Shown here piece after piece: positions 5,887 through 35,970 of a stretch of 64,000 nt of DNA. Positions within the stretch are counted from its first letter, which is position 1. The number at the start of each line of letters is the position of its first letter. A program made the translations under genes and the position numbers. The stretch lies in IMG/VR virus record IMGVR_UViG_3300030329_003387; one strand, given 5' to 3'. The DNA comes from a virus. A model generated the notes under the pieces. It was not told the origin of the DNA, made no database searches, and was given only the letters and a program-made list of their open reading frames with translations.

Positions 5887-6376
5887 ACAGAGAAGAAATA
5901 CAACGGACAAAGAGCTTGAAGACCAACTAATTCGTAACAATTACGGACTGGTTGTTAGTCAAGCTCTTTCTTTTTTATCTAAAAACTCTAGCTTAGATGA
6001 ATTTATACAGGCCGGACTGATAGGTCTGCTAAGAGCTATAAGACAACATGATGAAGATATATCTAAGTTTTCTACCTATGCTACCGTATGCATTAGGAAT
6101 GAGATACAAAAACTAAAAAGCAAAAACAAAGACAAAGATGTTAAAGTATTCTTTGACAACAATCTTTTAGCAAAAAGTCTAAAAGATAAGTACTATATAA
6201 AAGAAAGCTTCTTTGATTATGTGCCGGATTATCTATCAGAAGAAGAGAACTTCATACTCAAGCTAAAGCTTGAAAATTATACCAACGCAGAAATTTGCGA
6301 TTTTCTAAATTGCACTAGAGTTGTTTTGAATAAAAAATTAGAGACGCTCTTTGAAAAAATTAGGGAAGCTAATTGA
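5879..6376 (+). CDS. phage sigma-70-family RNA polymerase sigma factor
   Basis: Region 2: LIRNNYGLVV...IQAGLIGLLRAI...KFSTYATVCIRNEI. Region 4-like: LSEEENFIL...YTNAEICDFL. Confidence 0.88.
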   Translation: MNKQRRNTTDKELEDQLIRNNYGLVVSQALSFLSKNSSLDEFIQAGLIGLLRAIRQHDEDISKFSTYATVCIRNEIQKLKSKNKDKDVKVFFDNNLLAKSLKDKYYIKESFFDYVPDYLSEEENFILKLKLENYTNAEICDFLNCTRVVLNKKLETLFEKIREAN

Positions 6377-8013
6377 TGAGAAAGAAAAGAATATTATTTT
6401 GCGGAGAGGCTACCTATCTAAATACAGGTTATGCAACTTATGGTAGAGAAGTTTTAAACAGGCTTTACCAAACAGATAAGTACGAATTAGCAGAATTTGC
6501 TAGTTATGGGACTCCAGAAGAAGCCGCAAAGAACAATATTCCGTGGACTTTTTATCCAAACATGCCCGACACCTCTAACAAAGCTGAGGTAGATCAATAC
6601 AACTCCATTCCTACAAACCAGTTTGGGGAATGGAGATTTGAGGAAGTGTTGCTTAGCTTCAAACCGGATATTGTTTTTGACATTCGAGATTTTTGGATGC
6701 TTGACTATCAAAGTAGGTCGCCATTCAGAAGGATGTTTCATTGGGTTATAATGCCTACAGTAGATGCTTCCCCACAAAACGAACAATGGTTGGCTACATT
6801 TTCTGAAGCTGACGGCGTTTTTAATTATTCTGATTGGGGATATGAGGTTCTAAAAGAAGAGTCTAACGGCGCTATTAATTGTTTGGGTAGCGCTCCTCCT
6901 TCTGCCGACCAAGCCTACCAACCAGTAGCAAGCAAAAGAAAGCATAAATCTGAACTAGGGTTTGACCCAGATAGTAAAATAATTGGCACTGTAATGCGCA
7001 ACCAAAGAAGGAAGTTATTTCCTGATTTGTTTGAAGCTTTTAGAAAGTTTTTAGATAAGAGTGGTAGCAGTGACGTTTTTCTATACTGCCACACTAGCTA
7101 TCCAGACATTGGATGGGACATACCCAAACTACTGAACAAATACGCACTGTCAAGCAAGGTCATCTTTACATATGTATGCCCAAGCTGTGGTCATGCTTTT
7201 CCATCGTTTTTTGCTGACGCAAAGACAAAATGCCCAAGATGCGGCGGTTCTGGAGCTGGATTATCAAGCGTAAAGAATGGAACGAGCTATGAATTCCTTG
7301 CTTCTATCATGAATACGTTTGATCTGTACGTTCAGTATGCAAACAGTGAAGGTTTCGGTTTGCCACAGGTTGAAGCAGCTGCTTGTGGAGTGCCTGTCAT
7401 GAGCATTGATTACTCTGCCATGAGTAGTGTTGTTAGAAAATTGGGAGGAATACCATTAAAGCCAAAAGCTCTCTACAACGAAATGGAAACTGGTTGTGAC
7501 AGGGCAGTACCCGACAACGACAAGACTGCGGAGGAGATGAAAAAGTTCTTCGACATGTCAGATAAAGATCGTCAATTTTTAGGAAAGCTTTGCAAGGCGA
7601 ACTTTGATAAATACTACCAATGGGATTCAACCGCTAAGAAATGGGAGCAGTATTTTGATTCTTTAGAAATTAGACCCGATCAAGAAACTTGGCTGTCACC
7701 ACCCAGAATACACCACCCAGATATAGACGTTCCTGCCTATCTCCCTACACAAGAGTATGCTCAATGGCTGATAGTCAATGTTTTAGGAGAGCCTGAAAGA
7801 CTTAATACTTATTTTGAAGCAAGAATGATTAGAGATCTAAATTATGGGATGTACATAGAAGGCACTGGAGATATGTACTTCAATGAGGACTCTTATAAGT
7901 TTGTTCGCCCAGAATATCAGCCGTTTGATAAAGAAATTGCATACAAGGTTGTTGCTGACCTTGCAGAGAGAAGGAATTTCTGGGAATCAAAAAGGAAAGA
8001 GGTGGTTAGATGA
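6376..8013 (+). CDS. GT4 (GT-B) glycosyltransferase with zinc-ribbon insertion
   Basis: TGYATYGRE, RNQRRK, SEGFGLPQVEAAACGVPV; inserted CPSCG...CPRCG. Confidence 0.9.
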   Translation: MRKKRILFCGEATYLNTGYATYGREVLNRLYQTDKYELAEFASYGTPEEAAKNNIPWTFYPNMPDTSNKAEVDQYNSIPTNQFGEWRFEEVLLSFKPDIVFDIRDFWMLDYQSRSPFRRMFHWVIMPTVDASPQNEQWLATFSEADGVFNYSDWGYEVLKEESNGAINCLGSAPPSADQAYQPVASKRKHKSELGFDPDSKIIGTVMRNQRRKLFPDLFEAFRKFLDKSGSSDVFLYCHTSYPDIGWDIPKLLNKYALSSKVIFTYVCPSCGHAFPSFFADAKTKCPRCGGSGAGLSSVKNGTSYEFLASIMNTFDLYVQYANSEGFGLPQVEAAACGVPVMSIDYSAMSSVVRKLGGIPLKPKALYNEMETGCDRAVPDNDKTAEEMKKFFDMSDKDRQFLGKLCKANFDKYYQWDSTAKKWEQYFDSLEIRPDQETWLSPPRIHHPDIDVPAYLPTQEYAQWLIVNVLGEPERLNTYFEARMIRDLNYGMYIEGTGDMYFNEDSYKFVRPEYQPFDKEIAYKVVADLAERRNFWESKRKEVVR

Positions 8014-9134
8014 AAGTCCTCTATATAGGTTGTTACAGAGATGGTACTGGATGGGCGCAAGCGGCAATAGATTACATACTTTCTATGGACGCCGCTGGAA
8101 TAGACGTTGTTCCAAGACCAATAAAACTAAATAACAACAAGCCAGACATACCTAAAAGAATAATTGAGCTTGAGAAAAAAGACAGTATCGGCAGTGATGT
8201 TTGCATACAGCACGTACTTCCACACATGATGGATTACAATGCTAGATTTAAGAAAAATATAGCCCTATACGCAAGCGAGACAAGCAATTTTAAGGCATCT
8301 AACTGGGCTAGAAAAATAAACTGTTTAGACGAAGCTTGGGTTATAAACAATCAAATGGTGGACGCCGCAAAAGAAAGCGGGGTAAACATACCAATAAAGG
8401 TTGTTCCTCATGCCACAGATTTTTCTAAGTTTGAAAGCAATCATAGAAAGGTTGATATACCAAACATAAGAGACACCTTTACTTTCTACTTTGTTGGCGA
8501 GATGAACAACAGAAAGAATATGGCGGCTTTTATAAGAGCGTTTCATCTAGAGTTTGACCCAGACGAACCCGTCTCAATTTTAATAAAATCAAACAGGTAT
8601 GGTATGTCTTCCGACGAGTGCGCGGCAGAGATAAAAAATGTATGCGATAAAATTAAAACATCTCTTAAAAAGTACGCAAATCTAGAAGACTATAGAGAAG
8701 ACTTAATAGTTACAGATTATTTAGGCGAACAAGAGCTTTATGGTCTTCACAGGGCTTGCGACTGCTTCGTTATGCCTAGTTACGGAGAGGCTTGGTCTAT
8801 ACCAGCTTTTGACGCTATGGGCTTTGGTAAAACACCGATATGTTCAAATACTGGAGGAATGGCAGATTATATAGGTGACTCTGGAATTTTGATTGACGGT
8901 AGATGGGAGCCAGTTTCTGGAATGACAGACACTTTTGCCGACCTTTTTACAGCCGAAGAGGATTGGTACTCCGTAGATGTAAACCAGCTTAGAAAAGCGA
9001 TGAGAAAAATATACACAATGAAAAGCTCAGAACAAGAAGAATACAGCAAGATGAAAAGAAACGGACTTGTTCAAGCACAAAAATATTCTCACGAAAATAT
9101 AGGCAAACTAATAAAAGAGCTTTTGAATGAGTAA
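8010..9134 (+). CDS. GT4 glycosyltransferase
   Basis: NRKN, DCFVMPSYGEAWSIPAFDAMGFGKTPI...GGMADYI. Confidence 0.9.
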   Translation: MKVLYIGCYRDGTGWAQAAIDYILSMDAAGIDVVPRPIKLNNNKPDIPKRIIELEKKDSIGSDVCIQHVLPHMMDYNARFKKNIALYASETSNFKASNWARKINCLDEAWVINNQMVDAAKESGVNIPIKVVPHATDFSKFESNHRKVDIPNIRDTFTFYFVGEMNNRKNMAAFIRAFHLEFDPDEPVSILIKSNRYGMSSDECAAEIKNVCDKIKTSLKKYANLEDYREDLIVTDYLGEQELYGLHRACDCFVMPSYGEAWSIPAFDAMGFGKTPICSNTGGMADYIGDSGILIDGRWEPVSGMTDTFADLFTAEEDWYSVDVNQLRKAMRKIYTMKSSEQEEYSKMKRNGLVQAQKYSHENIGKLIKELLNE

Positions 9135-10143
9135 TCCAGTAGCATCTATAACAAGAGCAGCGACCAGAAAATTTAATGAGCCGCTAAACATACTAACCTT
9201 TCCTACGCACGAAAGGTATGAAAGTCTTTTGTGCAGGACTGGCCATAATTTTTATGCCTACAGAGCTGAAGGTGTAAAAGACTGGAACTCTAATTACGCT
9301 CCTCTACCAGAGAATTACCAACTGCTAAACCCAGAGCTTGGCGAATCACAAATACCACTGAATGTAGATTTTGATCTCATTCTCTCTCAAAACAAATTCG
9401 GTCAATTTCAAATTGCAGAGCCTTTATCAAAAAGACTGCACTTGCCGATGGTTAGTTTAGAGCATACATTGCCAGTTCCTTACTGGCCTCCCAATGTAAA
9501 AGAATCCACAAAATACATGAGAGGCGACACAAACATATTTATATCAGAATACAGCATACACGACTGGGATTGGAGTCCGCAGGGAAATGACACAGCAGTA
9601 ATAACACACGGAGTGGACTCGCAGACTTTTAAGCCACAAGAAGTAGAGAGAGAAAATCAAATACTATCCGTTGTTAATGACTGGATTAATAGAGATTGGT
9701 GTTGCGGATTCACTTTATGGCAAAGAGTCATTCAAGGCTTACCATTTAAGGTTGTTGGAGATACTCCCGGCCTGTCAGTCCCAGCATCCAGCACAGAAGA
9801 ATTAGTAAACGCATACTCTTCCAATAGAATTTTTCTAAACACTTCTACAATATCTCCCGTACCAACAGCCTTGCTGGAAGCCATGTCTTGTGGTTGCGCT
9901 GTTGTTACGACAGCGACATGTATGATACCGGAGATTGTAGAAAATGGCGTTAACGGTTTTATAAGTAATGACGAAGAAGAGCTAAAGCAATACTTAGTTG
10001 ACCTCTTGAATGACGAAGAGCTTGCTAAAAAGCTAGGCGAAAACGCAAGAAAAACCATAGTCGAAAACTTTTCACAAGAAGAGTTTATCAGGAAGTGGGA
10101 CTTTTTACTTAAACAAACTGCTAAAAAGTTTTTTAGGGGATAA
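9127..10143 (+). CDS. GT4 glycosyltransferase
   Basis: HGVD...F.P, PTALLEAMSCGCAVV, PEIVENGVNG, LGENARK. Confidence 0.9.
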   Translation: MSNPVASITRAATRKFNEPLNILTFPTHERYESLLCRTGHNFYAYRAEGVKDWNSNYAPLPENYQLLNPELGESQIPLNVDFDLILSQNKFGQFQIAEPLSKRLHLPMVSLEHTLPVPYWPPNVKESTKYMRGDTNIFISEYSIHDWDWSPQGNDTAVITHGVDSQTFKPQEVERENQILSVVNDWINRDWCCGFTLWQRVIQGLPFKVVGDTPGLSVPASSTEELVNAYSSNRIFLNTSTISPVPTALLEAMSCGCAVVTTATCMIPEIVENGVNGFISNDEEELKQYLVDLLNDEELAKKLGENARKTIVENFSQEEFIRKWDFLLKQTAKKFFRG

Positions 10144-10144
10144 G

Positions 10145-10654
10145 ATGAAGATTAACATAACACTAGGCGGGTCTGGCTACAAATCTGGATTTGTGAACAT
10201 AGACCCAACACTCAAGAGAATGGGTGAAGAAGTAGTTCTAGAGAATGCCAATGATGAACAAACAAATGTCATAAAGGCAGACATTCGTAATTTAGATGAA
10301 ATAACCCTAGAAAACGAATGTGTAGAAATTGTAGCAGAAGACATACTAGATTATCTACAGCTTGGAGAGTCTAGAAAAGTTTTAGCTCACTGGATCAGTA
10401 AGCTTAGGCATGGCGGCAAGATAGTCGTTGGTGGAACGGACATTCTAGAAGTATGTAGGATGTTTTACAAAAAAGCTATAGACACAGAGTCTCTTAATGT
10501 CCTCATGCATGGAAATTTTGAGGAGGCTTGGAGCGTTAAATTAAGTCATACGACTATGGAAGATCTTGTCTCTTTCTTAGAGTCACAAGGTATCAAAGTT
10601 ACAAAGAAAAGATTACAAGGCGTTAATATGTTAGTAGAAGGAGAAAGGCCATGA
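10145..10654 (+). CDS. class I SAM-dependent methyltransferase-like protein
   Basis: KINI..GG...GFVNID, ADIRNL, LAHWISKLRHGGKIVV pattern. Confidence 0.65.
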   Translation: MKINITLGGSGYKSGFVNIDPTLKRMGEEVVLENANDEQTNVIKADIRNLDEITLENECVEIVAEDILDYLQLGESRKVLAHWISKLRHGGKIVVGGTDILEVCRMFYKKAIDTESLNVLMHGNFEEAWSVKLSHTTMEDLVSFLESQGIKVTKKRLQGVNMLVEGERP

Positions 10655-11448
10655 TGGACAATCAGTTAACTAGCTCCTGTAAAGATTGTGTTTTTGCTGT
10701 TTATATTGGCAAAACACAGACAGAGTGTAAGTTAGGTCGAGTAGAGAAGTTTAGAGAAAAGGGAGTTGACATCATTGAAGCAGAGGACTTAGAAGAAAAT
10801 GAGTTCTTTGTGGTTGAGGCTTGGTGCAACTACTACAGAAATCAGGAATGGAAAGAGGCGTTTGACACAAGCGTTAGTCTAACAGACAAAGTAAAAGAAG
10901 AAGCCGTCTTTCCCGTAGGCTTTATAGTTTTGTTTGATAATGACTCCTCCACCGAAGATCTAGAAAAAACTATTTCTGGCATTAAGGAAATAGAAGGCGA
11001 GGCTTCATATGTCACCATAGCCAATAGTTCAGAATCAGACCCTATAGAATTCATTTCTACAGTTCAAGATTTGTTTGGAGATTCTGAAATAGATTACAAA
11101 GTAACTAGGATTATGGAAGAAGAGGCATATCAATACCAATCTATAGATTTGTGTTTTCCTAACATTAACAATAGCTACTACTATGTTTTGAGAGCTGGAA
11201 ACAAGCCTGCAAAGGATGTAATTTCTTTAATTGACAAGCAAACGAACACAGAACTTGAACCTGTTGTCTATATCAAAGGCGATGAAAATCTAAATGGAAC
11301 TGTTGTTCAGGCTACCATGCATAAGTTTTTGAATGGATACTACGGAATGACACTTCTTGAAAAAATAGAAGGCATACAGAGTGAAGACGGAAGTACCAAA
11401 AGTGTAGTTTGGACTTGGGAAGAAATTAGAAATGGAAAAGAATCCTAG
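10651..11448 (+). CDS. hypothetical protein: N-terminal Cys cluster plus degenerate GT-A-like domain
   Basis: CKDC...C...WCNYYR; VGFIVLF...DLEKTISGI resembles the start of a GT2 domain. Overlaps both neighbours. Confidence 0.5.
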   Translation: MMDNQLTSSCKDCVFAVYIGKTQTECKLGRVEKFREKGVDIIEAEDLEENEFFVVEAWCNYYRNQEWKEAFDTSVSLTDKVKEEAVFPVGFIVLFDNDSSTEDLEKTISGIKEIEGEASYVTIANSSESDPIEFISTVQDLFGDSEIDYKVTRIMEEEAYQYQSIDLCFPNINNSYYYVLRAGNKPAKDVISLIDKQTNTELEPVVYIKGDENLNGTVVQATMHKFLNGYYGMTLLEKIEGIQSEDGSTKSVVWTWEEIRNGKES

Positions 11449-12220
11449 AGTTACAATTCTTATAGCTTGTTATAACGACGAAGAGTATATAGCAAAAGCT
11501 ATAAAAAGTGCTATGCACCAAGACTATGAGGGACCTATAACAATTTGCGTTGTTAATGATGGCTCTACAGATAAGTCTTGGGACATAATAACTTCTTCTG
11601 AAAAGAGTGTTGCCAGCGATACATTTGAAGGTTCGCAAGTTTTTATAACTTGGCCTAGTGATGATTTTTCCGATAGAAAATTCGTTGCTATAAACAGAAC
11701 AAATGGAGGCCCTAGTGCTGCTAGAAATACCGGCATCAACTACACGTTGCAGGATACAGATATCTATGCAATTTTAGACGCTGACGATGAAATGTATCCT
11801 GAAAAGATAACAAAGTGTGTCAATGTTATGAAACAGGACATGAAATCTATTGGAGTTGTCTATGCTGATTATGACACTAAACATACTTCTACAGGAAAAA
11901 TAATCAGAGAGTATAAAGAACCTTACACCAGAAGAAGATTAATAGAAGAATGCATGGTTCATAGCGGAAGCATTATAAACAAACAAGCACTACTAGATGT
12001 TGAAGAAGCTACTGGCTACTACGACTCTACTATGAGAACATGCGAAGACTATGATCTTTGGATGAGAATAAGCGAAAAATACATCATAGCTCATGTTGCA
12101 GAGTCGCTGACTCTTGTTAGAGTAACAGGTGACAACTCTAGCTTTGTAGTGAACAAAAATGTCTGGCAACAGAACTGGTCTAGAGTAATGGAAAAATTGC
12201 AAGACAGGGCAAATGCGTAA
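11432..12220 (+). CDS. GT2 glycosyltransferase
   Basis: VTILIACYNDEEYI, VVNDGSTD, GPSAARN, ILDADD, CEDYDLWMRI. Confidence 0.95.
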   Translation: MEKNPRVTILIACYNDEEYIAKAIKSAMHQDYEGPITICVVNDGSTDKSWDIITSSEKSVASDTFEGSQVFITWPSDDFSDRKFVAINRTNGGPSAARNTGINYTLQDTDIYAILDADDEMYPEKITKCVNVMKQDMKSIGVVYADYDTKHTSTGKIIREYKEPYTRRRLIEECMVHSGSIINKQALLDVEEATGYYDSTMRTCEDYDLWMRISEKYIIAHVAESLTLVRVTGDNSSFVVNKNVWQQNWSRVMEKLQDRANA

Positions 12221-12932
12221 ATATAACCGTTTTACAAGCTCAACGAAGCACAATGGAGCTGGCAAAGACGCTGATAAACCTTTAAGTGTCATTATACCAG
12301 TAGCCGGTATGGGTCATAGAATGAAATCCTATGGCCCTAAGTGTTTGCTGCCAGTAAATCAAAGACATACCATACTAGACAAAATAATATTAACGGTAAA
12401 AAAGATTTACCCGTTTTCTGAGATAATAGTTGTGGTAGGGTTTGAATCCGACAGGGTTATAAAAACTCTGGATAGAGACATAAGGATTGTAGAAAATCAA
12501 TCTTATAGAACATCGAATATAGTGGAGAGTCTTAGGCTTGGAGTAAACAACTCAGTCCATGACAATGCACTGATAATATATGGAGATCTTATATTCAATG
12601 TAAGTTCGCTGAATGACATAACAAGGAAAGGCTCTTCTATTGTTGTTGATAGCCAGTCTAGATTTGATGAAGAAGAAATAGGCGTAACTATAGTGGACGG
12701 AGAAGTTACAAACTTTGCTTATGGGTTAGAATCTAAATGGGCGCATATAGCATACTTGGAAGGTTTGGAGTTTGAAATGTTTAACGATTTATGTCAAGAC
12801 AAGACAAAAAACAAAATGTATCCATTTGAGCTTTTCAATATAATAATAAACTCTGGAGGTTTCTTTAGATCTGTTGAACCTCCTCGAATGCAAATAAAAG
12901 AAATTGACTCTCTTAAGGACTTGAAAAAATGA
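12213..12932 (+). CDS. LicC-like nucleotidyl(cytidylyl)transferase
   Basis: IIPVAGMGHRM...PKCLL, VVVGF, IIYGDLIF, EIDSLKDL. Confidence 0.8.
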   Translation: MRKYNRFTSSTKHNGAGKDADKPLSVIIPVAGMGHRMKSYGPKCLLPVNQRHTILDKIILTVKKIYPFSEIIVVVGFESDRVIKTLDRDIRIVENQSYRTSNIVESLRLGVNNSVHDNALIIYGDLIFNVSSLNDITRKGSSIVVDSQSRFDEEEIGVTIVDGEVTNFAYGLESKWAHIAYLEGLEFEMFNDLCQDKTKNKMYPFELFNIIINSGGFFRSVEPPRMQIKEIDSLKDLKK

Positions 12933-13975
12933 AAGTTATGATTTCTAGTGACGGTCCTCATGCGCACTACTATATAAGAATGGGATGGGCTAAAGTTTTT
13001 CAAGCTATAGGTCACGAAGTAATTTTATGGGACACAAATACAAAGTCTGCATATGACGCATTTGATGAGTTTGAACCCGATATATTTATGGGTCAAACTT
13101 ACAACATGAATAGATCTCTCTTTAACTGCATAAAAGAGCGTCCAGAAATGAAGGTTGTAATGCGAGCTTCTGACTGGGGCGACATGCAAAAAGAGGTGGA
13201 TAAAGAAAAATATCCCATCCTGACGGCTACGAAAGATGAGTCTATATGGATAGAAAGACTTAAGAGAGAGTGCGACAAGCCTGACTTCGTTCACAATCAT
13301 TACCATGATAATTGGATGAAGGTCACGCACAATAGGTGGGAAGTAATAGGTGTAAAAGTTGTCTCAATGATGCATGGCGCAGATGTGTTCGACTATGCAA
13401 ACGCTGGTGAAGTAGATCTTCTAAAATCTGATATAGTGTTTGTGGGTGGTTATTGGCCTTACAAAGCAGAAAGGTTAGATCCATATCTTCTTAGGTTGTG
13501 CCATCCTGTCGGCAAGTTCAATATAAAAATCTTTGGAGGGTCTGATTGGCCGGTAGTTCAGTACGCCGGAAAAATCTCTAATGAAAATGTAAAACACGCC
13601 TTTAGATCTGCTACCGTCTGCCCAAACGTCAGCGAACCCCACTCACAGGACTTTGGATATGATATAATTGAGAGACCGTTCAAAGTATTGATGAGCGGCG
13701 GCTTCTGCATTTCAGACTACGTTGAGTCAATGGCAAACGACGTATTCACAAACGACGAAGTTCTGTTTGCAAAAACACCAGAAGAGTTTGAGCAACTAAT
13801 TCAATACTACGTCAATCACCCTAAAGAAGCAGCACTATACGCAGAAAAAGGATTTAATTGCGTTCTACAAAATCATACTTATTTTCACAGAATCGCTAGG
13901 CTGTTTACCGAACTAGACATGCCTAAAGAAGCGGAAAAATGTTTAATGTTCGTAGATAGCATGGTGGAAAAATGA
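12929..13975 (+). CDS. CgeB-like GT-B glycosyltransferase
   Basis: DIVFVGGY, ERPFKVLMSGGFCISDY, HTYFHRI C-terminal pattern. Confidence 0.8.
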   Translation: MKVMISSDGPHAHYYIRMGWAKVFQAIGHEVILWDTNTKSAYDAFDEFEPDIFMGQTYNMNRSLFNCIKERPEMKVVMRASDWGDMQKEVDKEKYPILTATKDESIWIERLKRECDKPDFVHNHYHDNWMKVTHNRWEVIGVKVVSMMHGADVFDYANAGEVDLLKSDIVFVGGYWPYKAERLDPYLLRLCHPVGKFNIKIFGGSDWPVVQYAGKISNENVKHAFRSATVCPNVSEPHSQDFGYDIIERPFKVLMSGGFCISDYVESMANDVFTNDEVLFAKTPEEFEQLIQYYVNHPKEAALYAEKGFNCVLQNHTYFHRIARLFTELDMPKEAEKCLMFVDSMVEK

Positions 13976-21015: not shown

Positions 21016-21044
21016 TCAACCTCAGAAAACTTGTCAGGCATGTC

Positions 21045-21821: not shown

Positions 21822-21822
21822 A

Positions 21823-25176: not shown

Positions 25177-25177
25177 A

Positions 25178-26598: not shown

Positions 26599-27166
26599 CA
26601 TACTTGTACTAGGCTCCTCATACCTAACAGAGCTTTCGGTTAAACATCTTTTAGATATGGGTGACTACAACCTTGTTGGCTATGTACCTTGTAGAAATAC
26701 ACCAGTCGAAGGAGACATACCTCTAAAAAGAGTAGATGTTAATCACCCGTGTGATATAAAACTCTCACTTCAATACGACATCATAGTTGAGGACACATCA
26801 AACACTTACAATCTTCACACTGGATTGCTTCCTCAATATGGCGGTAGAGATATATTAGACCATACTATTAAAAATAAAGAGCGAGAACAGGGGCTGACTT
26901 TTCACAAAATGACTGAGGATCTTGATTACGGCCCAATAATAAGCAAAATAACATACCCAGTACTAGATACTGACTGTTCTTTTGATTTGTATAAAAGAAT
27001 GCTGGAAATAGCACCCCTTTTTGTGCATAGCAGTTTGAAGCTATTAAATAGCATGAAACAAAAAGAAATAGAAAAATGTTACAAATATCCTCCTACTATG
27101 TATAGTAGAGGAGAGTTTAAACTTAGTGAAAAATTTAAAGAGTTTATAAAATGCAAAAAGCACTAG
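26585..27166 (+). CDS. N10-formyl-THF-dependent (sugar N-)formyltransferase
   Basis: NLHTGLLPQYGG and TFHKMTEDLDYGPII catalytic motifs. Confidence 0.85.
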   Translation: MKSYDILVLGSSYLTELSVKHLLDMGDYNLVGYVPCRNTPVEGDIPLKRVDVNHPCDIKLSLQYDIIVEDTSNTYNLHTGLLPQYGGRDILDHTIKNKEREQGLTFHKMTEDLDYGPIISKITYPVLDTDCSFDLYKRMLEIAPLFVHSSLKLLNSMKQKEIEKCYKYPPTMYSRGEFKLSEKFKEFIKCKKH

Positions 27167-28140
27167 TAACAGGTGGAGCTGGGTTTATAGGTCACCACCT
27201 AATAGAACATATATTAAAAAATACAGATTGGTTTGTTGTTTGTTTGGATAGGCTGGACACTTCTGGAAACCTCAATAGAATATCCGAATTTCTTGAAACT
27301 AACCCTTCTTGGAAAAAAAGATTTAAGTTTTTATACCACGACCTAAAGGCTGAAATAAACTCACAATTAGCAAGGCAGATTGGTAATGTAAGCATAGTCT
27401 TTCATCTAGCCGCCTCTTCTCATGTAGATAGAAGTATTGAAGATCCTTTAAGTTTTGTTTACGACAACGTGGTAGGTTCTTGTAATCTATTCAATTTTGC
27501 CAGAAATTGTGACACTATCGACTACATACAAAATTTTAGCACGGACGAAGTGTTTGGCGATGCGCCAGTAGGAACTGCCTACAAAGAATGGGATCGTCAC
27601 ATGGCAAAAAATCCATACTCTGCTAGTAAAGCTGGGGCAGAGCAGTTAGGAATTGCATTTCATAATACCTATGGACTTCCTATCATCACAACCAACTGCA
27701 TGAATGTGATTGGTGAAAGACAGCATCCTGAAAAGTACCTACCATTATGCATCAAAAAAATATTGGCAGGAGAAAAGATATACATACATTCAGATCCAAA
27801 CAAGAATCCCGGAACTAGATTTTATGTACACGCAAGAAACGTTGCTGACGTATCTTTATTCTTGACAGAAAAAGCAGAAGCTGGAGACAAGTATAATCTT
27901 GTTGGGCAAAGAGAAGTTTCAAATTTAGAACTAGCACAAATGGTAGCTGAAATTTTAGGAAAAGAGCTTAATTACGAACTAGTTGATTTTCATTCTTCTA
28001 GACCCGGACACGACTTAAGATATGCGCTAGAAGATACAAAAATATGCAATATGGGATACAGCTATCCTGTGTCGTTCGAGGATTCTTTAAAGAAAACAAT
28101 ACAGTGGACGATAGACAATCCTAAGTGGTTGGCAGGATAA
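27151..28140 (+). CDS. rmlB: NDP-glucose 4,6-dehydratase (RmlB-like)
   Basis: LVTGGAGFIG, HLAASSHVDRSI, STDEVFG, NPYSASKA, QHPEK, RPGHDLRYA. Confidence 0.9.
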   Translation: MQKALVTGGAGFIGHHLIEHILKNTDWFVVCLDRLDTSGNLNRISEFLETNPSWKKRFKFLYHDLKAEINSQLARQIGNVSIVFHLAASSHVDRSIEDPLSFVYDNVVGSCNLFNFARNCDTIDYIQNFSTDEVFGDAPVGTAYKEWDRHMAKNPYSASKAGAEQLGIAFHNTYGLPIITTNCMNVIGERQHPEKYLPLCIKKILAGEKIYIHSDPNKNPGTRFYVHARNVADVSLFLTEKAEAGDKYNLVGQREVSNLELAQMVAEILGKELNYELVDFHSSRPGHDLRYALEDTKICNMGYSYPVSFEDSLKKTIQWTIDNPKWLAG

Positions 28141-29081
28141 TGAAATTTTTAATCCCAATAAAAAATAACAAATACTTTAAAATTGTTTCAAAAGCTCTTA
28201 AAGCAGGGCTAGAGAAACAAGGACAGGTAGCCGAAATCATACTTAGAAACGACCTGTCTAAAAAAGAAGAGTGTATCAAAGAGTATGATTTTGTTTTTGT
28301 GTTTACGATAACGGGAGATTGGATAAGAGATTTAGCTATTAAATATGGAAAGCCTTACATCTACATGGATAAGGGGTATTGTAGAAATGCCAGACTTAAA
28401 AAGCCTGAAGCATTTATAAGATTTAGTCCAAACAGCTGGCAACCTTTAAAGCACCTAGATAAGTTTTCGGATAGAGATGATAGGTGGGAGGAACTGCTAA
28501 AAATACCAATAAGAAAGTGGTATGAAAAAGACGGAAAAGTATCCAAAGTAGAAACTCTAGAGCCAAAACCTCACTTTAAAGAAGAGGGTGAGTATATACT
28601 GTTTGCTGGAAGTTCTGCAAAATACCATCTATATATGGGCATTGAAGAACCAACCACATATACAAAAAACATAGTTAAAGAGATTAGACAACTTACAGAC
28701 CGTCCTATAATATACAGACCTAAACCAAGTTGGAATGCAAAGCAAGAAGTAGAAGGTACAATATTTTTAGGCGACAATAAGATAAAATACCACGAACTGC
28801 TAAAGAAAGATCTGTATTGCGTCATAACTCATACCAGTAACGCTGCTTTAGAAGCTAACTTCTACGGAATACCTACAATCGTTCTCGGAGAGGCGATAGC
28901 TAAACCAGTATCTAGCACAAAGCTAGATGGGATAAATAATATATATAGGCCAACACTTGAAGAGAAGCATTCATTAGGCAGATCCCTATCCTACTTTCAA
29001 TATAGAATTGAAGAGGTGGAGGATGGAGTCATGTTTGATAATCTAAAAGGCATTTTTGAGGAGGAATTAAATGGGTCATAA
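28140..29081 (+). CDS. capsule-synthesis (KpsS-like) glycosyltransferase, paralog 3
   Basis: MDKGYCR, LTDRPIIYRPKP, CVITHTSNAALEANFYGIPTI, LSYFQYRIEEV. ATG 28140 overlaps the upstream TAA. Confidence 0.62.
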   Translation: MKFLIPIKNNKYFKIVSKALKAGLEKQGQVAEIILRNDLSKKEECIKEYDFVFVFTITGDWIRDLAIKYGKPYIYMDKGYCRNARLKKPEAFIRFSPNSWQPLKHLDKFSDRDDRWEELLKIPIRKWYEKDGKVSKVETLEPKPHFKEEGEYILFAGSSAKYHLYMGIEEPTTYTKNIVKEIRQLTDRPIIYRPKPSWNAKQEVEGTIFLGDNKIKYHELLKKDLYCVITHTSNAALEANFYGIPTIVLGEAIAKPVSSTKLDGINNIYRPTLEEKHSLGRSLSYFQYRIEEVEDGVMFDNLKGIFEEELNGS

Positions 29082-29451
29082 AACACTAACGGGCGCTGTT
29101 CAGGGTAAGTTTTGGGGAACAACAAGATGCTTTTTTGAGAATGCAACAAGTGAGGTTCATTACATAGAAGCTAATAAAGATGGCTATTGTTCTCGTCATC
29201 ATCATGAAAATAAATGGAACAGATTTATCGTGCTTGAAGGAGCTTTGAAGGTTATTATATATAAGCAGGATAGTGAAGATGAGACAATACTGAGACAAGG
29301 TATGTTTTCTGACGTTCCTCCCGGAATAGACCATAGATTTGTCGCAATGGAAGACACAAAAGCGTTAGAGGTTTATTGGATAGACGGATTAGACCCTAAA
29401 GATATAGTTAGGAAAGATACTGGTGGTTCTGGAAGAAGTACAGATAAATAA
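29071..29451 (+). CDS. cupin (sugar isomerase/epimerase-like)
   Basis: CSRHHHENKWNRFIVLEG and VPPGIDHRF cupin motifs. Confidence 0.82.
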   Translation: MGHKTLTGAVQGKFWGTTRCFFENATSEVHYIEANKDGYCSRHHHENKWNRFIVLEGALKVIIYKQDSEDETILRQGMFSDVPPGIDHRFVAMEDTKALEVYWIDGLDPKDIVRKDTGGSGRSTDK

Positions 29452-30214
29452 ACCTGTTTTACTTATAGGCTCTGGTCCAGCTATAGATGAGTATCTTACA
29501 CCGGAGATAGCAAGTAAATATTTTACATTGTGTACCGGAAGGGCTATATATGCGCTAGATCACGTAGATATAGTTACCTGTCTAGATCTGGTCAGGTTCG
29601 TCCATAATATATCTAACTTTTCAGATAGATTTGATCACTTTTTAGTTCCTCACTGCCTAACCACCAGATTCTGGACTGGAAGCAAGTCTGGAATACTAGA
29701 GGTCACGAACACGACTCCTATCTACACTTTTAACACTGGAGCTAGCAGTCCAAGCTCAACAAAAGATTGGTCGGACGTTCAGTACACATACAAAAAAAGC
29801 CCAAAGCACGCAAAGATGTTAGCTCACATGAGCCAGTTTGAAAGCTACAAAAAACAAATGGGCGTTAACGAAGGGTGTACAATATTGCACCCGCATGTAG
29901 CTTACGAAAATGTACTTAGGGTACTGTCGATCTCTTCCACATTATCGCAAAAGATAGAGATGTTTTTGAGAGAAGATGTCGATTTAACACATTGCCCTAT
30001 AGATCAGTTTTTATTAAAAGACAATACTCTGAGAAATCACTGTAGTTGTTTGCACTTCTTAATAAACTGGCTTTGGCTAAAAGGAGTTAATAAAGTGCAT
30101 ACAATTGGCATAACAAGAGAGTATGAAGGTTGGGGACACACAAGACAGTTATTTGATTTTTACGGTATCAATTTTACTATGATGGAAGACTTTGGCGGAG
30201 AAATAAAATTATGA
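29423..30214 (+). CDS. hypothetical protein, possible Maf/sialyltransferase-like transferase
   Basis: VLLIGSGPAI N-terminus and GVNKVHTIG near the C-terminus; context. Confidence 0.45.
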   Translation: MVLEEVQINKPVLLIGSGPAIDEYLTPEIASKYFTLCTGRAIYALDHVDIVTCLDLVRFVHNISNFSDRFDHFLVPHCLTTRFWTGSKSGILEVTNTTPIYTFNTGASSPSSTKDWSDVQYTYKKSPKHAKMLAHMSQFESYKKQMGVNEGCTILHPHVAYENVLRVLSISSTLSQKIEMFLREDVDLTHCPIDQFLLKDNTLRNHCSCLHFLINWLWLKGVNKVHTIGITREYEGWGHTRQLFDFYGINFTMMEDFGGEIKL

Positions 30215-30681
30215 TTTTAATATCTCATAGAGGTAACGTTTACGGTCCAGAACCTAGATTAGAAAACAGTCCTGTCTATATAAACTCTGCCTTGCAAGAA
30301 AATTACTTTGTAGAAATAGATGTGTGGAAAATAAAAGACTCTTGGTTCTTAGGTCACGATGGACCAGCATACGAAACAACCGAAAAGTTTTTAACACAGA
30401 AGAATCTACTAATACACGCTAAAAATTTAGATGCATTAAAATGTTTGTTAGAGCTAGACGTTCACTGCTTTTGGCATCAAGAAGATTTCTATACTATTAC
30501 CAGTAGGGGTTTAATAATTAGTTATCCGGGCTACGCTACTGGCGAAAATGTTATTTGCATGAAACCTGAGCTTATATCAATGGACACAATACGTGACTGC
30601 CATGCAATATGTTCAGATTATGTAGGAATTTATAAAGATAAAAAGCCAGAAATCAAGGTGGGTTTTAGTGAAACACGCTGA
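30211..30681 (+). CDS. short GDPD-like phosphodiesterase
   Basis: LISHRGN, EN, VEIDVW, LGHD, HAKN. Confidence 0.75.
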   Translation: MILISHRGNVYGPEPRLENSPVYINSALQENYFVEIDVWKIKDSWFLGHDGPAYETTEKFLTQKNLLIHAKNLDALKCLLELDVHCFWHQEDFYTITSRGLIISYPGYATGENVICMKPELISMDTIRDCHAICSDYVGIYKDKKPEIKVGFSETR

Positions 30682-31462
30682 CGTAACGATTGTCATACAA
30701 GGTCCTTCTGTTAGCGTATCTGGAAAACTGGGTGCTGCATTTAGAAATTTAGAAAACTACAGCAAGCACGTTGGCAATATTGTAATATCAACTTGGGATG
30801 ACAGCAAAGTAAAGCCGTCAAAAAGGATGCTAAGCAGGCTTGGTATCAAGTATGTTGAAGATTCTAAAGATCATTATAAGAATCATTACAACAACTCTAA
30901 TATAGCATACCAATCTGCAACTTCACTAAATGGATTAAAACTTGTTAAAACCAAATACGCTATAAAAGTAAGGTGTGACGAAAAGTATACCGATATTTCT
31001 AAATTTATAGAGGTAATGAAAAGCGCGCCAGAAAAAATAACGACTAGCAATTTTCTGTTTACTTCTGATGACTTTAGTCAATTCCACATATCCGATCACG
31101 TAATTGGAGGCAAGACGGAAAACTTGATAGGAATGTTTGATAATGCGTCCATGCTATGCAAACACTACGCTAATAAGACAGACCCTATAACAGGAAGTGA
31201 CTTAGCTATAGACAACTACAGAAATGGAAAAACAAAAAACGACGAAATATCACCAGAGTCACTTTTGTTTTTGTGCTTCCTAGCTTATAAAGAAATTGAA
31301 ATAGACTGTTCAAAGTCTATAGAAATAATGAATAATAATTGCCAACTTGTTGAATTAACAGATATGGGAGACTTTCTTTGCCATATGTCTTGTATACCCT
31401 ATACAAATTACGATAGGGTATTAGAGGACACGGCTACTATAACATCAATGAACGATCTATGA
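30668..31462 (+). CDS. WavE-like LPS/glycan synthesis protein
   Basis: VTIVIQGP, IVISTW, YQ...SLNGLK.VKTKYAIKVRCD, FHISDH, PES. Confidence 0.78.
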   Translation: MKHADVTIVIQGPSVSVSGKLGAAFRNLENYSKHVGNIVISTWDDSKVKPSKRMLSRLGIKYVEDSKDHYKNHYNNSNIAYQSATSLNGLKLVKTKYAIKVRCDEKYTDISKFIEVMKSAPEKITTSNFLFTSDDFSQFHISDHVIGGKTENLIGMFDNASMLCKHYANKTDPITGSDLAIDNYRNGKTKNDEISPESLLFLCFLAYKEIEIDCSKSIEIMNNNCQLVELTDMGDFLCHMSCIPYTNYDRVLEDTATITSMNDL

Positions 31463-31593
31463 CCAGAAGTAAAGATATAGGTTTTATATTTTTAATGTCA
31501 CTCTTAATTACAGTGCAATTTCCAGTCGAACAATCCACTTGTATATTTTTAGCTTTCGTAGCTTACAGGAGAAAAAAATGCCTAAAATATTAG
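31459..31593 (+). CDS. 44-aa hydrophobic small protein (below ORF-track cutoff)
   Basis: MTRSKDIGFIFLMSLLITVQFPVEQSTCIFLAFVAYRRKKCLKY*. ATGA overlap with the WavE stop; overlaps the next start. Confidence 0.45.
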   Translation: MTRSKDIGFIFLMSLLITVQFPVEQSTCIFLAFVAYRRKKCLKY

Positions 31594-32513
31594 TTACAGG
31601 AGGTGGCGGGTACGTAGGAAACGTATTGTGCCGACATCTATTAGACAAAGGTTATGAAGTAAAGTGTGTTGACAACTTTCATAAGGGTCAATGTGACGCA
31701 ATTATTCCGTTAGCAACAAATCCAAGATTTGAGTTTGAATATGGCGATGTAACCGTCTTGGAACAAATGAAGGAGGCTGTACGTGGGTGTGACGCTATTA
31801 TTCATCTCGCTGCTATTGTTGGCTTTCCGGCTTGCAAATCCCAGCCCGCTTTGGCAACGGCGGTAAACGTAGAAGGCACTAGAAATATTATTTTCGCAAG
31901 AGAGGCTTACAACCCTAAGATTCCTCTTGTTTATGCGTCCACAGGCAGCGTGTACGGTAAGGTGGAGGATATTTGCACAGAAGAGTCCGCACTCAACGCT
32001 GTATCGCTTTACGGGGTAAATAAGAAGGTTGCAGAAGAGATGGTGGGAACACAAGAAAACACTGTTTCTTTTAGGTTCGCTACTGGGTTTGGTGTCAGCC
32101 CATGTATGCGGGTGAATTTGCTCGTAAACGATTTTGTGTATCAGGCTATGACGAATAAGATACTGACTATTTTTCAAGCAGATTTTCGCAGAACTTTTAT
32201 TCATGTAAGAGACATGGCAAAAGCTTTCACTATGGGTGTGGAAAACATGGGTAACTGGAAACACAAAGTTTACAACTGCGGAGCTAACCATTTGAATTGG
32301 ACAAAAAGGGAACTCGCAGAATATGTAAAAGAACAGACAGGATGTTTTGTTCATTATGAAGAAATTGGCAAAGATGCTGACCAAAGAGACTACGAAGTGA
32401 GTTATGATAAACTAGAAGCCGAAGGGTTTAAGTGCGACGTAGACATGAAGACTGGCATCAATGAATTAATTAAAGTAGCACCTATTTTACAAATTAGGCA
32501 TCAATACTCATGA
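31578..32513 (+). CDS. NAD-dependent epimerase/dehydratase
   Basis: ILVTGGGGYVG, HLAAIVG, ASTGSVYG, YGVNK; AGGAGA RBS before ATG 31578. Confidence 0.9.
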   Translation: MPKILVTGGGGYVGNVLCRHLLDKGYEVKCVDNFHKGQCDAIIPLATNPRFEFEYGDVTVLEQMKEAVRGCDAIIHLAAIVGFPACKSQPALATAVNVEGTRNIIFAREAYNPKIPLVYASTGSVYGKVEDICTEESALNAVSLYGVNKKVAEEMVGTQENTVSFRFATGFGVSPCMRVNLLVNDFVYQAMTNKILTIFQADFRRTFIHVRDMAKAFTMGVENMGNWKHKVYNCGANHLNWTKRELAEYVKEQTGCFVHYEEIGKDADQRDYEVSYDKLEAEGFKCDVDMKTGINELIKVAPILQIRHQYS

Positions 32514-33466
32514 TAGATTTAAAAGATTCAAAAGTATTAGTAACTGGTGGCACTGGTTTTTTTGGAAGGGGTATATGCAAAGCCTTAGAGACTAGAGGTG
32601 TAGAAGAAATTATAGAGGTCAATTCTGACGTTGTAAATCTAATGGACATTGAAGCTACCATAATGTTTTTGGATTCAACCAGACCAGACTATTGCATACA
32701 CGCAGCTGGATATAACGGCGGGATTGAATTCAACAGAATGTATCCTGCTGACATTCTTTACGCAAATACAGTCATGGGATTAAATTTACATCATGCGTGC
32801 GAATATATGAAAGTTAAAAAGGTTCTCTCTATTATGACTTCTTGCGCCTACCCAGACACAGGCATGGAGTTGTTAAAAGAAGAAACTTTTTGGAATGGAC
32901 TTCCTAACAAAACAATCAGAGCGCATGGTATTGCAAAGAGAACACTACAAGCAGCAGCCGAAGCGTATGAAGATCAATACGATTTAAAATCAGTGACAGC
33001 TTGTGTAACAAATTTATACGGCCCGCACGACACATTTAACTTAGTTAGGACTAAGGTGGTTGGTGCTTTGATAAGAAAATTTGTTGAAGCCGTAATAGAG
33101 GAGGAAGATGAGGTTGAATGTTGGGGTACTGGCGCTCCTATGAGAGAGTTTATGTATGTAGACGACGCCGGTGAAGCAGTTGTGCAAGCTTTAGAAAAGT
33201 ACGACGACAGCTCAACACCTCTCAATATTGGAACAGGAAATGACATCAGCATAAAAGAACTTGTTGACTATATAGTGTCTGCCGTGGAGTATGAGGGCGA
33301 TGTTTTTTGGAATACAGAAAAGCCTGACGGACAAATGAAAAAGCTATTAGATACTTCAAGAATGAAAGAAATAATCAACTTGGAACCAATATCCGTTAAA
33401 GACGGTATAGAAAAAACCATAGAGTGGTATATATCAAACAAAGAAAAAGCAGATGCAAAAAATTAA
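32510..33466 (+). CDS. GDP-L-fucose synthase (Fcl/WcaG)-like epimerase/reductase with atypical active site
   Basis: GGTGFFG, GGIEFN..PADILYAN, SCAYP, NLYGPHD.F, WGTGAPMREFMYVDD, KPDGQ. Confidence 0.85.
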   Translation: MIDLKDSKVLVTGGTGFFGRGICKALETRGVEEIIEVNSDVVNLMDIEATIMFLDSTRPDYCIHAAGYNGGIEFNRMYPADILYANTVMGLNLHHACEYMKVKKVLSIMTSCAYPDTGMELLKEETFWNGLPNKTIRAHGIAKRTLQAAAEAYEDQYDLKSVTACVTNLYGPHDTFNLVRTKVVGALIRKFVEAVIEEEDEVECWGTGAPMREFMYVDDAGEAVVQALEKYDDSSTPLNIGTGNDISIKELVDYIVSAVEYEGDVFWNTEKPDGQMKKLLDTSRMKEIINLEPISVKDGIEKTIEWYISNKEKADAKN

Positions 33467-33929
33467 TAAAGTTGGTGTAGTTATAGATGACTTAAGCGCC
33501 GGTCAACTATCATACCACATCATAAAAAATATAAATAACTATGTAGAAGAAAGCTCTACAGACTTTGTTGCGTTCTTTCAAAACTCAACCTCAAACATGA
33601 TGCCAATGACTTTTTCGTCTATGTGCATAAATGAGATTTGGAATTTTGACGGAGCGGCAATAGCGACCTCAGTTTCAACAGCTCTCGCAATATCAAAAAC
33701 GTTTTCTCCTAGAAGAAAGTATTTTTACGTTTGGGATCTAGAGTGGTGCAGAAGAAACGGTAGGGAGTTTGAATACAACGTCCAAGCTTTTAACAAACAA
33801 GATATAAATCTAATAGCAAGAAGCGAAGATCATGCTAAAGCTATTAAAAACTATTGCAATAGAGACGTTGTCGGCGTTGTAGAAAATTTTAACATCAACA
33901 AACTAATGGAAATAATTAATCATGAGTAA
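33453..33929 (+). CDS. hypothetical protein resembling an isolated GT-B N-terminal lobe
   Basis: D.AAIATS.STA...KYFYVWDLE resembles the WsaF-type IAT...TA...YFIQD.E segment. Confidence 0.5.
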   Translation: MQKINKVGVVIDDLSAGQLSYHIIKNINNYVEESSTDFVAFFQNSTSNMMPMTFSSMCINEIWNFDGAAIATSVSTALAISKTFSPRRKYFYVWDLEWCRRNGREFEYNVQAFNKQDINLIARSEDHAKAIKNYCNRDVVGVVENFNINKLMEIINHE

Positions 33930-35946: not shown

Positions 35947-35970
35947 GAAGTTAGCGGGTGCAATATGGGT

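Follow-up and report, generated by a model that had tools for sequence, protein, structure and literature searches.

The 64,000-nucleotide stretch of viral DNA analyzed here (IMG/VR record IMGVR_UViG_3300030329_003387), referred to below in its full length as the window, carries between positions 6373 and 33929 an island of 32 co-oriented plus-strand genes that is rich in soluble glycosyltransferases (GTs) and in sugar-nucleotide enzymes, a description supported by family, fold and synteny evidence. According to the listing of open reading frames (ORFs), 26 of the 31 junctions in the island are overlaps of 1–31 nt and three are gaps of a single nucleotide, the only larger gaps being 29 and 76 nt, which confirms the mostly overlapping run of genes on one strand reported in a first-pass annotation of this DNA. 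Family searches in Pfam and NCBIfam, taken together with the fold and Atlas evidence given below, yield a tally of 13 predicted glycosyltransferases, about 10 enzymes of donor synthesis or tailoring, three firm and one weak methyltransferase, and six proteins without assigned function. The island very probably constitutes a soluble glycan-assembly system of a phage that needs no membrane. In the following, genes are named by the position of their first nucleotide, and related viral contigs by handles beginning with G or L.

The island opens with a core GT4 glycosyltransferase of GT-B fold, assigned by Pfam (6373..8013), which carries a zinc-ribbon insert at residues 264–292 and a C-terminal extension. 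This gene heads the island in every member examined of the clade of related phages, its product being 33–77% identical across the clade, about equal to DnaE; no close relative was found in 185,579 prokaryote genomes, and the GT group 1 genes that some few cyanophages carry are only about 22% identical to it. It is followed by two further core GT4 genes (8010..9134, Glycos_transf_1, E 7e-15, conserved in the clade; 9127..10143, Glycos_transf_1, E 5e-19), by a small conserved core protein with a weak, not significant class I methyltransferase-like lead (10145..10654; CheR, E 0.035; PDB methyltransferase profile, E 0.21), and by a core transferase with an N-terminal four-cysteine module and no Pfam match (10651..11448). 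In the predicted structure of the latter (AF2, i.e., AlphaFold2; pLDDT 91.5) 10651 is a GT-A fold enzyme, with WrtF, TarP, and TarS as Foldseek neighbors at E of about 1e-6, and the cysteines C10, C13, C26, and C59 are invariant. Cysteine or zinc modules are thus present on two core transferases, as a zinc ribbon inside GT4 6373 and as an N-terminal Cys4 module on GT-A 10651; to our knowledge such modules are unusual among glycosyltransferases, and they may serve to recognize the acceptor. Next come a GT2 enzyme (11432..12220; Glycos_transf_2, E 1e-24) and a core nucleotidyltransferase resembling MobA, IspD, and the N-terminal domain of GlmU (12213..12932; NTP_transf_3, E 1e-11; all NCBIfam matches below cut-off), which is present even in distant relatives and presumably activates a sugar or polyol phosphate. 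This part of the island ends with a CgeB-like GT-B glycosyltransferase (12929..13975; Glyco_trans_1_2, E 2e-21) and an extended short-chain dehydrogenase/reductase (SDR) of the epimerase, dehydratase or reductase type acting on nucleoside diphosphate (NDP) sugars (13972..14922; Epimerase, E 4e-38; no NCBIfam equivalog reached).

The following genes mix further transferases with tailoring enzymes. A 351-aa protein without family (14919..15974; no match in Pfam, NCBIfam or PDB), found also in G006, G008, G009, and the closest long relative G001 (136,411 bp, CheckV completeness 90%, assembled from pieces, 140 ORFs), precedes a GT25 enzyme (15962..16684; Glyco_transf_25, E 3e-8, 34 bits, above cut-off), a protein with a sub-threshold match to DUF7796 (16681..17346; 24.6 bits at a cut-off of 27) and a fusion of a HAD domain of the beta-phosphoglucomutase family with a sugar-1-phosphate nucleotidyltransferase (17343..18719; HAD_2, E 5e-28; NTP_transferase, E 1e-11; NCBIfam bPGM and RmlA-like). 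A marginal GT8-like gene (18709..19371; Glyco_transf_8, 24.4 bits at a cut-off of 24.3) leads to the first of three paralogous KpsC/WbbB/KrkA-like predicted transferases (19371..20351), an FkbM methyltransferase (20335..21015; Pfam E 3e-12; TIGR01444, 79 bits, above cut-off), a 258-aa protein without matches in Pfam, NCBIfam or PDB (21045..21821), the second and shorter KpsC-like paralog (21823..22587) and a class I methyltransferase of the Methyltransf_24 family (22557..23150; E 4e-16). Gene 23134..25176 encodes a DegT/PseC-type sugar aminotransferase (DegT_DnrJ_EryC1, E 1e-65, residues 306–671; PseC, 185 bits, below the NCBIfam cut-off), fused to an N-terminal domain for which a GT-A/GT2-like fold is a lead only: its first 295 residues resemble viral GT2 clusters in the Atlas at 0.95. 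Four genes follow, namely a sugar O-methyltransferase of NanM type (25178..25981; TIGR04371, 71 bits at a cut-off of 44), a 'sporadic carbohydrate cluster'-type 2-oxoglutarate (2OG)-Fe(II) oxygenase (25972..26598; TIGR04324, E 1e-8, below cut-off), a sugar N-formyltransferase (26585..27166; Formyl_trans_N, E 2.5e-11; NCBIfam ArnA and dTDP-4-amino-4,6-dideoxyglucose formyltransferase) and a dTDP-glucose 4,6-dehydratase-like SDR (27151..28140; TIGR01181, E 1e-74, 251 bits, below the cut-off of 365), before the third KpsC-like paralog (28125..29081).

The 3' part of the island begins with a WbuC-like cupin (29071..29451; Cupin_2; TIGR04366, E 1.5e-7), which is kept at the island's 3' end in G006–G008, and a protein with a faint, not significant MptE/Maf-like match (29423..30214; PF01973, E 0.016, 15 bits). 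A 156-aa protein without Pfam or NCBIfam matches (30211..30681) and a putative WavE glycosyltransferase (30668..31462; WavE, E 2.6e-10) are followed by an extended SDR (31539..32513; Epimerase, E 8e-37), a GDP-L-fucose synthase-like 3,5-epimerase/4-reductase (32510..33466; NF047922, E 6e-74, 249 bits, below the cut-off of 500) and a 158-aa protein without family (33453..33929), which is conserved even beside small islands and may therefore be part of the phage backbone instead of an island member. Searches of PDB by sequence and profile with 10145, 10651, 14919, 21045, and the KpsC-like family returned nothing significant. Taken gene by gene, Pfam bears out the three GT4 enzymes, the GT2, the CgeB-like protein and the GT25 listed in the first-pass annotation (6373, 8010, and 9127; 11432; 12929; 15962), and Pfam or NCBIfam families were found for its four SDRs, two nucleotidyltransferases, aminotransferase, formyltransferase, oxygenase and cupin; its GT8-like gene holds only marginally, and of its four methyltransferases those at 20335, 22557, and 25178 stand, while 10145 is a weak lead and no more.

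The three KpsC-like genes 19371, 21823, and 28125 are mutual paralogs by BLASTP (21823 to 19371, E 9e-19; 28125 assigned by its paralogy to 19371). The structural model of 19371 (pLDDT 93) has KpsC, WbbB, and KrkA as top Foldseek matches at E 1e-7, and in structural comparison (VIA) it reaches Z-scores of 15.6 with KpsC, 14.1 with WbbB, and 12.8 with KrkA; the retaining transferases for beta-linked 3-deoxy-D-manno-octulosonate (Kdo) overall score 12.6–15.6, about 3–5 Z units above generic GT-B folds (about 10). With 251 residues aligned to Escherichia coli KpsC at a root-mean-square deviation of 3.7, the model of 19371 shares the fold of the retaining beta-Kdo transferases KpsC, KpsS, WbbB, and KrkA (GT99/GT107). 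PF05159 (Capsule_synth) was not matched by the KpsC-like proteins in Pfam searches up to E 5, PDB profile searches were empty, and only 10% of one neighboring Atlas cluster carries this domain. The R-x-H-P motif occurs in 19371 and throughout most of the family (28 of 34 members); 28125 has K-P in place of H-P, and in 21823 the motif region aligns to a gap, so that two of the three island paralogs differ from KpsC, KpsS, WbbB, and KrkA in lacking the motif histidine. Residue D94 is nearly invariant in the family alignment and may correspond to the catalytic aspartate that, together with an H-P motif, makes up the GT99/GT107 signature. As no Pfam match exists and R-x-H-P is absent from two paralogs, the label 'KpsS-like' given to the three genes by the first-pass annotation holds at the level of the fold, modeled for 19371, and fails at the level of sequence. 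The family comprises 80 metagenomic members, none of them annotated, and appears largely viral, those Atlas clusters that stand closest to the KpsC-like protein being 94–100% viral. It occurs within 8 kb of kdsA in five of 79 other viral loci compared with none of 74 control loci, a linkage that is suggestive and not significant; in one of the kdsA-linked loci (L231), the KpsC-fold gene overlaps the kdsA stop codon. kdsA itself is common in viral contigs of IMG/VR (204 matching stretches; loci L164–L243).

Machinery for export, polymerization or priming, of which the first-pass annotation saw none in the island, is absent from the island, the window and the 90%-complete, 136-kb relative G001. 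By Kyte-Doolittle hydropathy, no window ORF of at least 80 aa has a convincing hydrophobic span (maximum 19-residue mean 1.60), and the shorter hydrophobic ORFs of the window are antisense shadows inside genes. In G001, none of the 140 ORFs has three or more spans predicted by the same method, and its eight small hydrophobic proteins matched no glycan family. The priming transferase Bac_transf (PF02397) was found in none of five relatives, although 10 of 14 control genomes were positive.

That the window is of viral origin is supported by 64 related IMG/VR contigs, identified through the C-terminal half of DnaE with the nearest being 95% identical, and by a TerL-like ORF in each of five long relatives (136–238 kb, 90–100% complete, two with terminal repeats); a cellular origin of the contig was rejected. 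Some homologs come from Tara Oceans samples, and the island gave no match to GenBank phages in megablast searches. We take the genome of this uncultured marine phage to be about 150 kb, on the basis of the 151-kb longest contig listed for a protein cluster encoded in the window, so that the island would account for about 18% of the genome.

Across the clade the locus keeps its position between the SSB/sigma genes and the homolog of gene 33922, and the island comparison suggested by the first-pass annotation shows conserved ends and a variable middle. Its length is about 6.5–7 kb in G002, G003, G005, L034, L038, L046, and L048, 10.6 kb in G004 and G010, 12.2 kb in G007, 16.7 kb in G009, 20.2 kb in G006, 22.3 kb in G008, 27.5 kb in this window, and 28.7 kb in G001. 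The core common to the whole clade consists of three GT4 enzymes, two GT-A enzymes and one nucleotidyltransferase, and its transferases are about as conserved as DnaE across a clade in which the C-terminal half of DnaE falls to 42% identity. The head of the island (6373–14922) is common to G001 and G006–G009, and so is its tail with the SDRs 31539 and 32510, mostly together with the cupin and 33453. The number of KpsC-like copies changes in the middle, and the cassette from aminotransferase to dehydratase (23134–28140) is found only here, in G001 and in L065; judged from these alignments, the variable middle of this lineage has grown to about 20 kb. Compared with 74 other IMG/VR loci bearing DegT, in which at most 8 ORFs per 21 kb resemble island proteins (a rough lower bound), the island stands at the large end of such viral loci. 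The nearest Atlas clusters of the GT2-like domain are 86–100% viral, and the transferase lineages of the island look virus-specific and not like recent acquisitions from hosts.

The whole island is syntenic in G001 at 54–97% amino acid identity with fourfold degenerate sites saturated at 30–45% identity, which argues that its genes are functional. Strong purifying selection on the island genes is indicated by proteins such as 18709, 27151, and 31539, which retain 94–95% amino acid identity to G001 despite saturated fourfold sites. Genes 17343 (96.5% amino acid and 72.5% fourfold-site identity), 21045 (95 and 77.6%), 25178, and 25972 are 72–87% identical to G001 at fourfold sites, pointing to recent recombination between diverged phages. 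The SDR 31539 is 90–94% identical across G001 and G006–G009, the DnaE C-terminal halves of which are only 55–69% identical; its synonymous sites are diverged (58% identity), and it is an unusually constrained protein.

G001 carries further glycan genes outside the island. On its structural strand, between 18.7 and 21.7 kb, a phosphoribosyltransferase-domain protein, a 199-aa ORF, a Methyltransf_24 protein and a WavE-like protein 32% identical to the island's 30668 stand in a row, flanked by proteins of 21–27% Ser+Thr and by a 757-aa fiber with a Peptidase_S74 chaperone domain. The late WavE paralog was not found in G006–G009, contigs that are 47–66% complete, and a WavE search in distant relatives, uninformative in that no control genome matched either, gave no matches. 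The early region of G001 (128.3–133.4 kb; 8271–13398 of L153) contains a GT4-like gene, a transferase homologous to chlorovirus A075L/GT47 (E 2e-17), an adjoining Kdo-8-phosphate synthase (Pfam E 3e-71; E 4.5e-91 to the solved KDO8PS) and an S-adenosylmethionine (SAM)-dependent methyltransferase; no window protein matched the A075L homolog at E 1e-5. A075L has been implicated in building the glycan of the PBCV-1 capsid protein (PMC9614988). A CMP-Kdo synthetase-type protein (PF02348) was not found above cut-off in five related contigs, three of them at least 90% complete, and no NeuB-type match exceeded the family cut-off. If Kdo is used, its activation would accordingly depend on the host or on nucleotidyltransferase 12213, and the description of the island as 'self-sufficient' goes too far. 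Nearby, on the minus strand of G001 (134685–135275; L153 14688–15275), lies a gene whose 196-aa product resembles nucleoside 2-deoxyribosyltransferase families below threshold and may act in nucleotide metabolism or DNA modification.

Within the window, the island belongs to the first of two convergent gene arrays, on the plus strand from position 1 to about 35.9 kb and on the minus strand from 36 to 64 kb, and the GC skew switches sign where they meet. The plus-strand array opens with a PD-(D/E)XK nuclease, a split DnaE, a DEDDh exonuclease, SSB and a sigma-70 region-2 protein (5879..6376, plus strand; Pfam Sigma70_r2, E 1.3e-12), the stop codon of which overlaps the first island gene. At 1011–5403, the N- and C-terminal halves of DnaE are separated by an 83-aa ORF and the DEDDh exonuclease, an arrangement kept across the clade. 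Downstream, on the same strand, gene 33922..34710 encodes a clade-wide 262-aa protein with a conserved N-terminal region and a D...EIDG..H pattern in its C-terminal half, which is Vsr-type nuclease-like (PDB profile: AbaSI nuclease domain, E 0.022, weak) and not glycan related; it forms the downstream anchor of the island. The stretch 33922–35897 was considered as part of the island and rejected, as it encodes nuclease-like, HeH-domain and zinc-ribbon proteins conserved even beside small islands; since 33922 and the following genes are not glycan genes, the island end assigned by the first-pass annotation is right. Where the two arrays converge, a hairpin bordered by runs of A and of T (35908..35946, with the same feature at 67802–67875 of G001) probably acts, as read from the sequence, as a bidirectional terminator closing the transcription unit of the island. 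A plus-strand ORF of 93 aa (35927–36208) is probably spurious, because it begins within the hairpin, overlaps a minus-strand gene and lacks a counterpart in G001.

The minus strand from 36 to 64 kb is occupied by giant ORFs of 3200, at least 2075, 1399, 825, 671, and 621 aa. Of the replication and tail genes said to flank the island, the former are borne out by Pfam families, whereas on the tail side family searches gave only Laminin_G_3. That side is syntenic with a module following a 4413-aa ORF in a relative, and searches of PHROGs and Pfam with the giant minus-strand proteins and with candidate head genes of G001 gave almost no matches, so that the label 'tail' depends on the synteny together with one LamG domain and, in G001, one Peptidase_S74 fiber. 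Scans for sigma-70 promoters and terminators over the island gave counts not above those of shuffled sequences and were uninformative. The promoter-like motif GTGTATAAT, found in intergenic regions of G001 and lying ahead of several structural genes, occurs nowhere inside the island and once in the window outside it, which gives no timing information for the island. The motif (T)GGTGTATAATA is present in at least seven intergenic regions of G001 on structural and early strands and is likely a phage promoter element; in the window it occurs once, at 36715–36724 on the minus strand, upstream of gene 35971–36681, and the island has none.

Regarding the product, family, fold and synteny evidence indicates a route from NDP-hexose via the 4,6-dehydratase, the DegT aminotransferase and the formyltransferase to a 4-formamido-4,6-dideoxyhexose, and a second route to one or more 6-deoxyhexoses via the fucose-synthase-like reductase; O-methylation and 2OG-dependent oxidation are likewise encoded. 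We propose that these enzymes would build, in the cytoplasm, at least one complex and probably non-repeating oligosaccharide, the core transferases starting the glycan and the variable set elaborating it, with Kdo supplied by the phage Kdo-8-phosphate synthase, the gene for which is seen in G001, and activated through CMP-Kdo synthesis of the host. The acceptor would be the phage's own virion proteins before lysis, most plausibly Ser/Thr-rich fiber-like proteins or the capsid, and we assign a probability of roughly 0.45 to virion proteins being the acceptor. A virion sugar coat appears the likeliest product because nothing moves the product across a membrane, and the conservation of the core, similar to that of DnaE over a deep clade, agrees better with an acceptor that the phage itself carries than with glycans specific to the host. 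Virion glycosylation is further supported by the related glycan enzymes among the fiber-like late genes of G001, by the A075L homolog in the same genome, by the virus-specific look of the transferase lineages and by the high number of transferases: a typical O-unit needs 3–6 of them, which 13 or more exceeds. The complete picture, in which a tailed phage coats its virion with O-methylated glycans containing Kdo and formamido sugars, made wholly in the cytoplasm through over 40 genes of the phage in the island and in smaller clusters elsewhere in its genome, started by the zinc-module transferases conserved across the clade and varied through a rapidly exchanging middle cassette, is somewhat more tentative still; such a coat would be the equivalent, in a bacterial virus, of the glycan coats that giant viruses have.

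Several points weigh against virion glycosylation. The assignment of the acceptor is an indirect one. The GT4/RfaG-like, GT25, GT8, WavE, and KpsC-like families are typical of lipopolysaccharide (LPS) and capsule pathways acting on lipid-linked intermediates, and bacterial surface-antigen loci likewise have conserved ends around a variable middle. Verification of the late-operon enzymes, of KdsA and of the A075L homolog comes from G001 and not from the window's own genome, and Kyte-Doolittle hydropathy is a crude test that is blind to peripheral membrane binding through amphipathic helices. Moreover, the island has no GTGTATAAT motif and follows DnaE, SSB, and sigma on the replication strand, which gives no indication that it is expressed late together with the virion proteins.

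The explanation that ranks next to virion glycosylation is remodeling of the host envelope, which we consider possible without favoring it. The soluble transferases would then act at the cytoplasmic face on lipid-linked intermediates of the host, such as undecaprenyl-PP-glycans, lipid A-core or the Kdo linker on lyso-phosphatidylglycerol, and a flippase or ABC exporter and a ligase of the host would display altered LPS or capsule, thereby blocking superinfection or keeping progeny from adsorbing to debris. The missing membrane genes do not prove a cytoplasmic target, because soluble transferases for LPS, capsule and teichoic acid also act at the cytoplasmic face and because the phage could use the lipid carrier and exporters of its host. 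Besides the LPS- and capsule-type families (GT25, GT8, WavE, RfaG-like GT4, the KpsC-like fold) and the antigen-locus-like middle, an LPS or capsule product would agree with the Kdo-8-phosphate synthase of G001, the island shares its orientation with replication genes of the early or middle type and lacks the structural-type promoter motif, and TarP, a fold neighbor of 10651, is encoded by a prophage and alters wall teichoic acid ahead of its export by the host. An untested proposal of this kind has been made for the 24 'LPS' genes of P-SSM2 (PMC1079782) and for the transferases of pelagimyophages (PMC7029224). However, a core as conserved as DnaE in a deep clade that probably spans different hosts is not readily reconciled with it, nor are transferase lineages that look viral and not recently host-derived, or related enzymes among the fiber-like late genes of G001; 13 or more transferases is a large number for a single repeat unit, and the product would have to suit host flippases, ligases or exporters, of which the phage supplies none.

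Another cytoplasmic product or acceptor is improbable, be it a free or lipid-anchored oligosaccharide, the glycosylation of host proteins or small molecules as a counter-defense, or a matrix released at lysis. DegT, FkbM, 2OG oxygenases and formyltransferases are also typical of the tailoring of natural-product sugars, and the six ORFs without assigned function leave room for such a product, but no aglycone-forming genes, such as those for polyketide synthases (PKS) or non-ribosomal peptide synthetases (NRPS), were seen in the window or among the scanned proteins of G001, and the long-conserved core of several transferases argues for a defined macromolecular acceptor. Very unlikely, finally, is that the glycans sit on modified phage bases and evade restriction, which would agree with GT-A and GT-B phage transferases that decorate DNA containing 5-hydroxymethylcytosine (5hmC) or 5-hydroxycytosine (5hoC) with varied glycans, with the island's position behind replication genes and, speculatively, with nucleic acid binding by the zinc-ribbon and Cys4 modules of two core transferases, since such DNA glycosylation is tied to a thymidylate-synthase homolog, which makes 5hm- or 5ho-pyrimidine nucleotides, or to a C5-cytosine methyltransferase with the TET/JBP-like 5mYOX (bioRxiv 10.1101/2023.12.21.572611; PMC13326640), thymidylate synthase (PF00303) is absent from the five relatives that are 90–100% complete with 10 of 14 controls positive (Tet_JBP, PF12851, had no match in the relatives, nor in any control genome), and a formamido sugar, Kdo-type transferases, O-methylation and the scale of the island lie far beyond the DNA glycans of both papers.

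Clusters of sugar genes in marine phages have been known since 2005, and the present clade offers a clean comparative series for them, with one anchored locus that ranges from about 6.5 to about 29 kb and with no membrane machinery in the near-complete G001. If the product is placed on the virion, tailed phages would share an autonomous, cytoplasmic and chemically complex protein glycosylation with giant viruses, with consequences for the stability of phages, host recognition, grazing and the stickiness of particles in the sea. If the host surface is remodeled instead, the island would show in extreme form how a lytic phage reprograms envelope glycans. In both cases it holds uncharacterized enzymes, among them a largely viral KpsC-fold family, the zinc-module transferases and a fusion of GT and aminotransferase.

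Compared with known systems, the island resembles bacterial O-antigen and capsule loci in its NDP-sugar synthesis genes, soluble glycosyltransferases, conserved ends and variable middle, and it differs from these loci and from the gtrABC genes of seroconverting phages in that a priming transferase of WecA/MraY or WbaP/PglC type, Wzx/Wzy or an ABC exporter, GtrA/GtrB and a polytopic serotype-specific Gtr are absent. With CroV, PBCV-1, and Mimivirus it shares soluble, virus-encoded transferases and nucleotide-sugar pathways, the Kdo-8-phosphate synthase and A075L homolog of G001 adding to the likeness to the chlorovirus and CroV systems. The contiguous CroV cluster is of similar size, 38 kb with 34 ORFs for Kdo biosynthesis, about five transferases and sugar methyltransferases (PMC9614988), whereas the present island belongs to a tailed phage with a bacterial host, makes up about 18% of a genome of about 150 kb, and has many more transferases (13 or more) and no complete Kdo pathway. 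The view of the first-pass annotation that the scale is more typical of giant viruses is overstated, since marine phages with many such genes were already described: Prochlorococcus phage P-SSM2 has 24 'LPS' genes in two clusters (PMC1079782), and pelagimyophages carry transferases beside tail-fiber genes in hypervariable regions (PMC7029224). The present phage differs from these as another lineage, with a split DnaE module and giant minus-strand ORFs, as well as by its single operon-like block of 27.5 kb, its KpsC-like triplet, formamido-sugar cassette and zinc-module transferases, and by transferase lineages that look virus-specific and not host-derived. As regards a T4-like backbone, its replication module consists of split DnaE, SSB, and sigma, and its large virion-side proteins match no named PHROG.

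Among cultured phages, the aquatic Flavobacterium phage vB_FspM_immuto (NC_055915), one of only six GenBank phage records with a DegT homolog at E<1e-20, has a cluster of 13 genes (gp181–gp169, about 11 kb) with transferases, an aminotransferase, a methyltransferase and an epimerase. The aminotransferase of this phage, 41% identical to that of the island, has the GT2 gene directly upstream, matching the fusion 23134; the cluster is a third of the island's size, stands in a backbone with a family A polymerase and has no annotated KpsC-like or formyltransferase genes. In mycobacteriophages, phage-encoded soluble transferases put glycans on capsid and tail-tube subunits (Freeman et al. 2023, as cited in PMC12619734), and this virion glycosylation is the only demonstrated tailed-phage mechanism of the kind proposed here. 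Only a few transferases per phage are reportedly involved in that case; the present island differs in comprising 32 genes with their own donor synthesis, known from sequence alone. In kind, therefore, such systems are already known from the sugar clusters of marine phages, immuto, the virions of mycobacteriophages and CroV; what sets the present island apart is the size relative to the genome, the operon-like layout, the KpsC-fold triplet, the formamido-sugar cassette, the zinc-module core transferases and the graded series across the clade.

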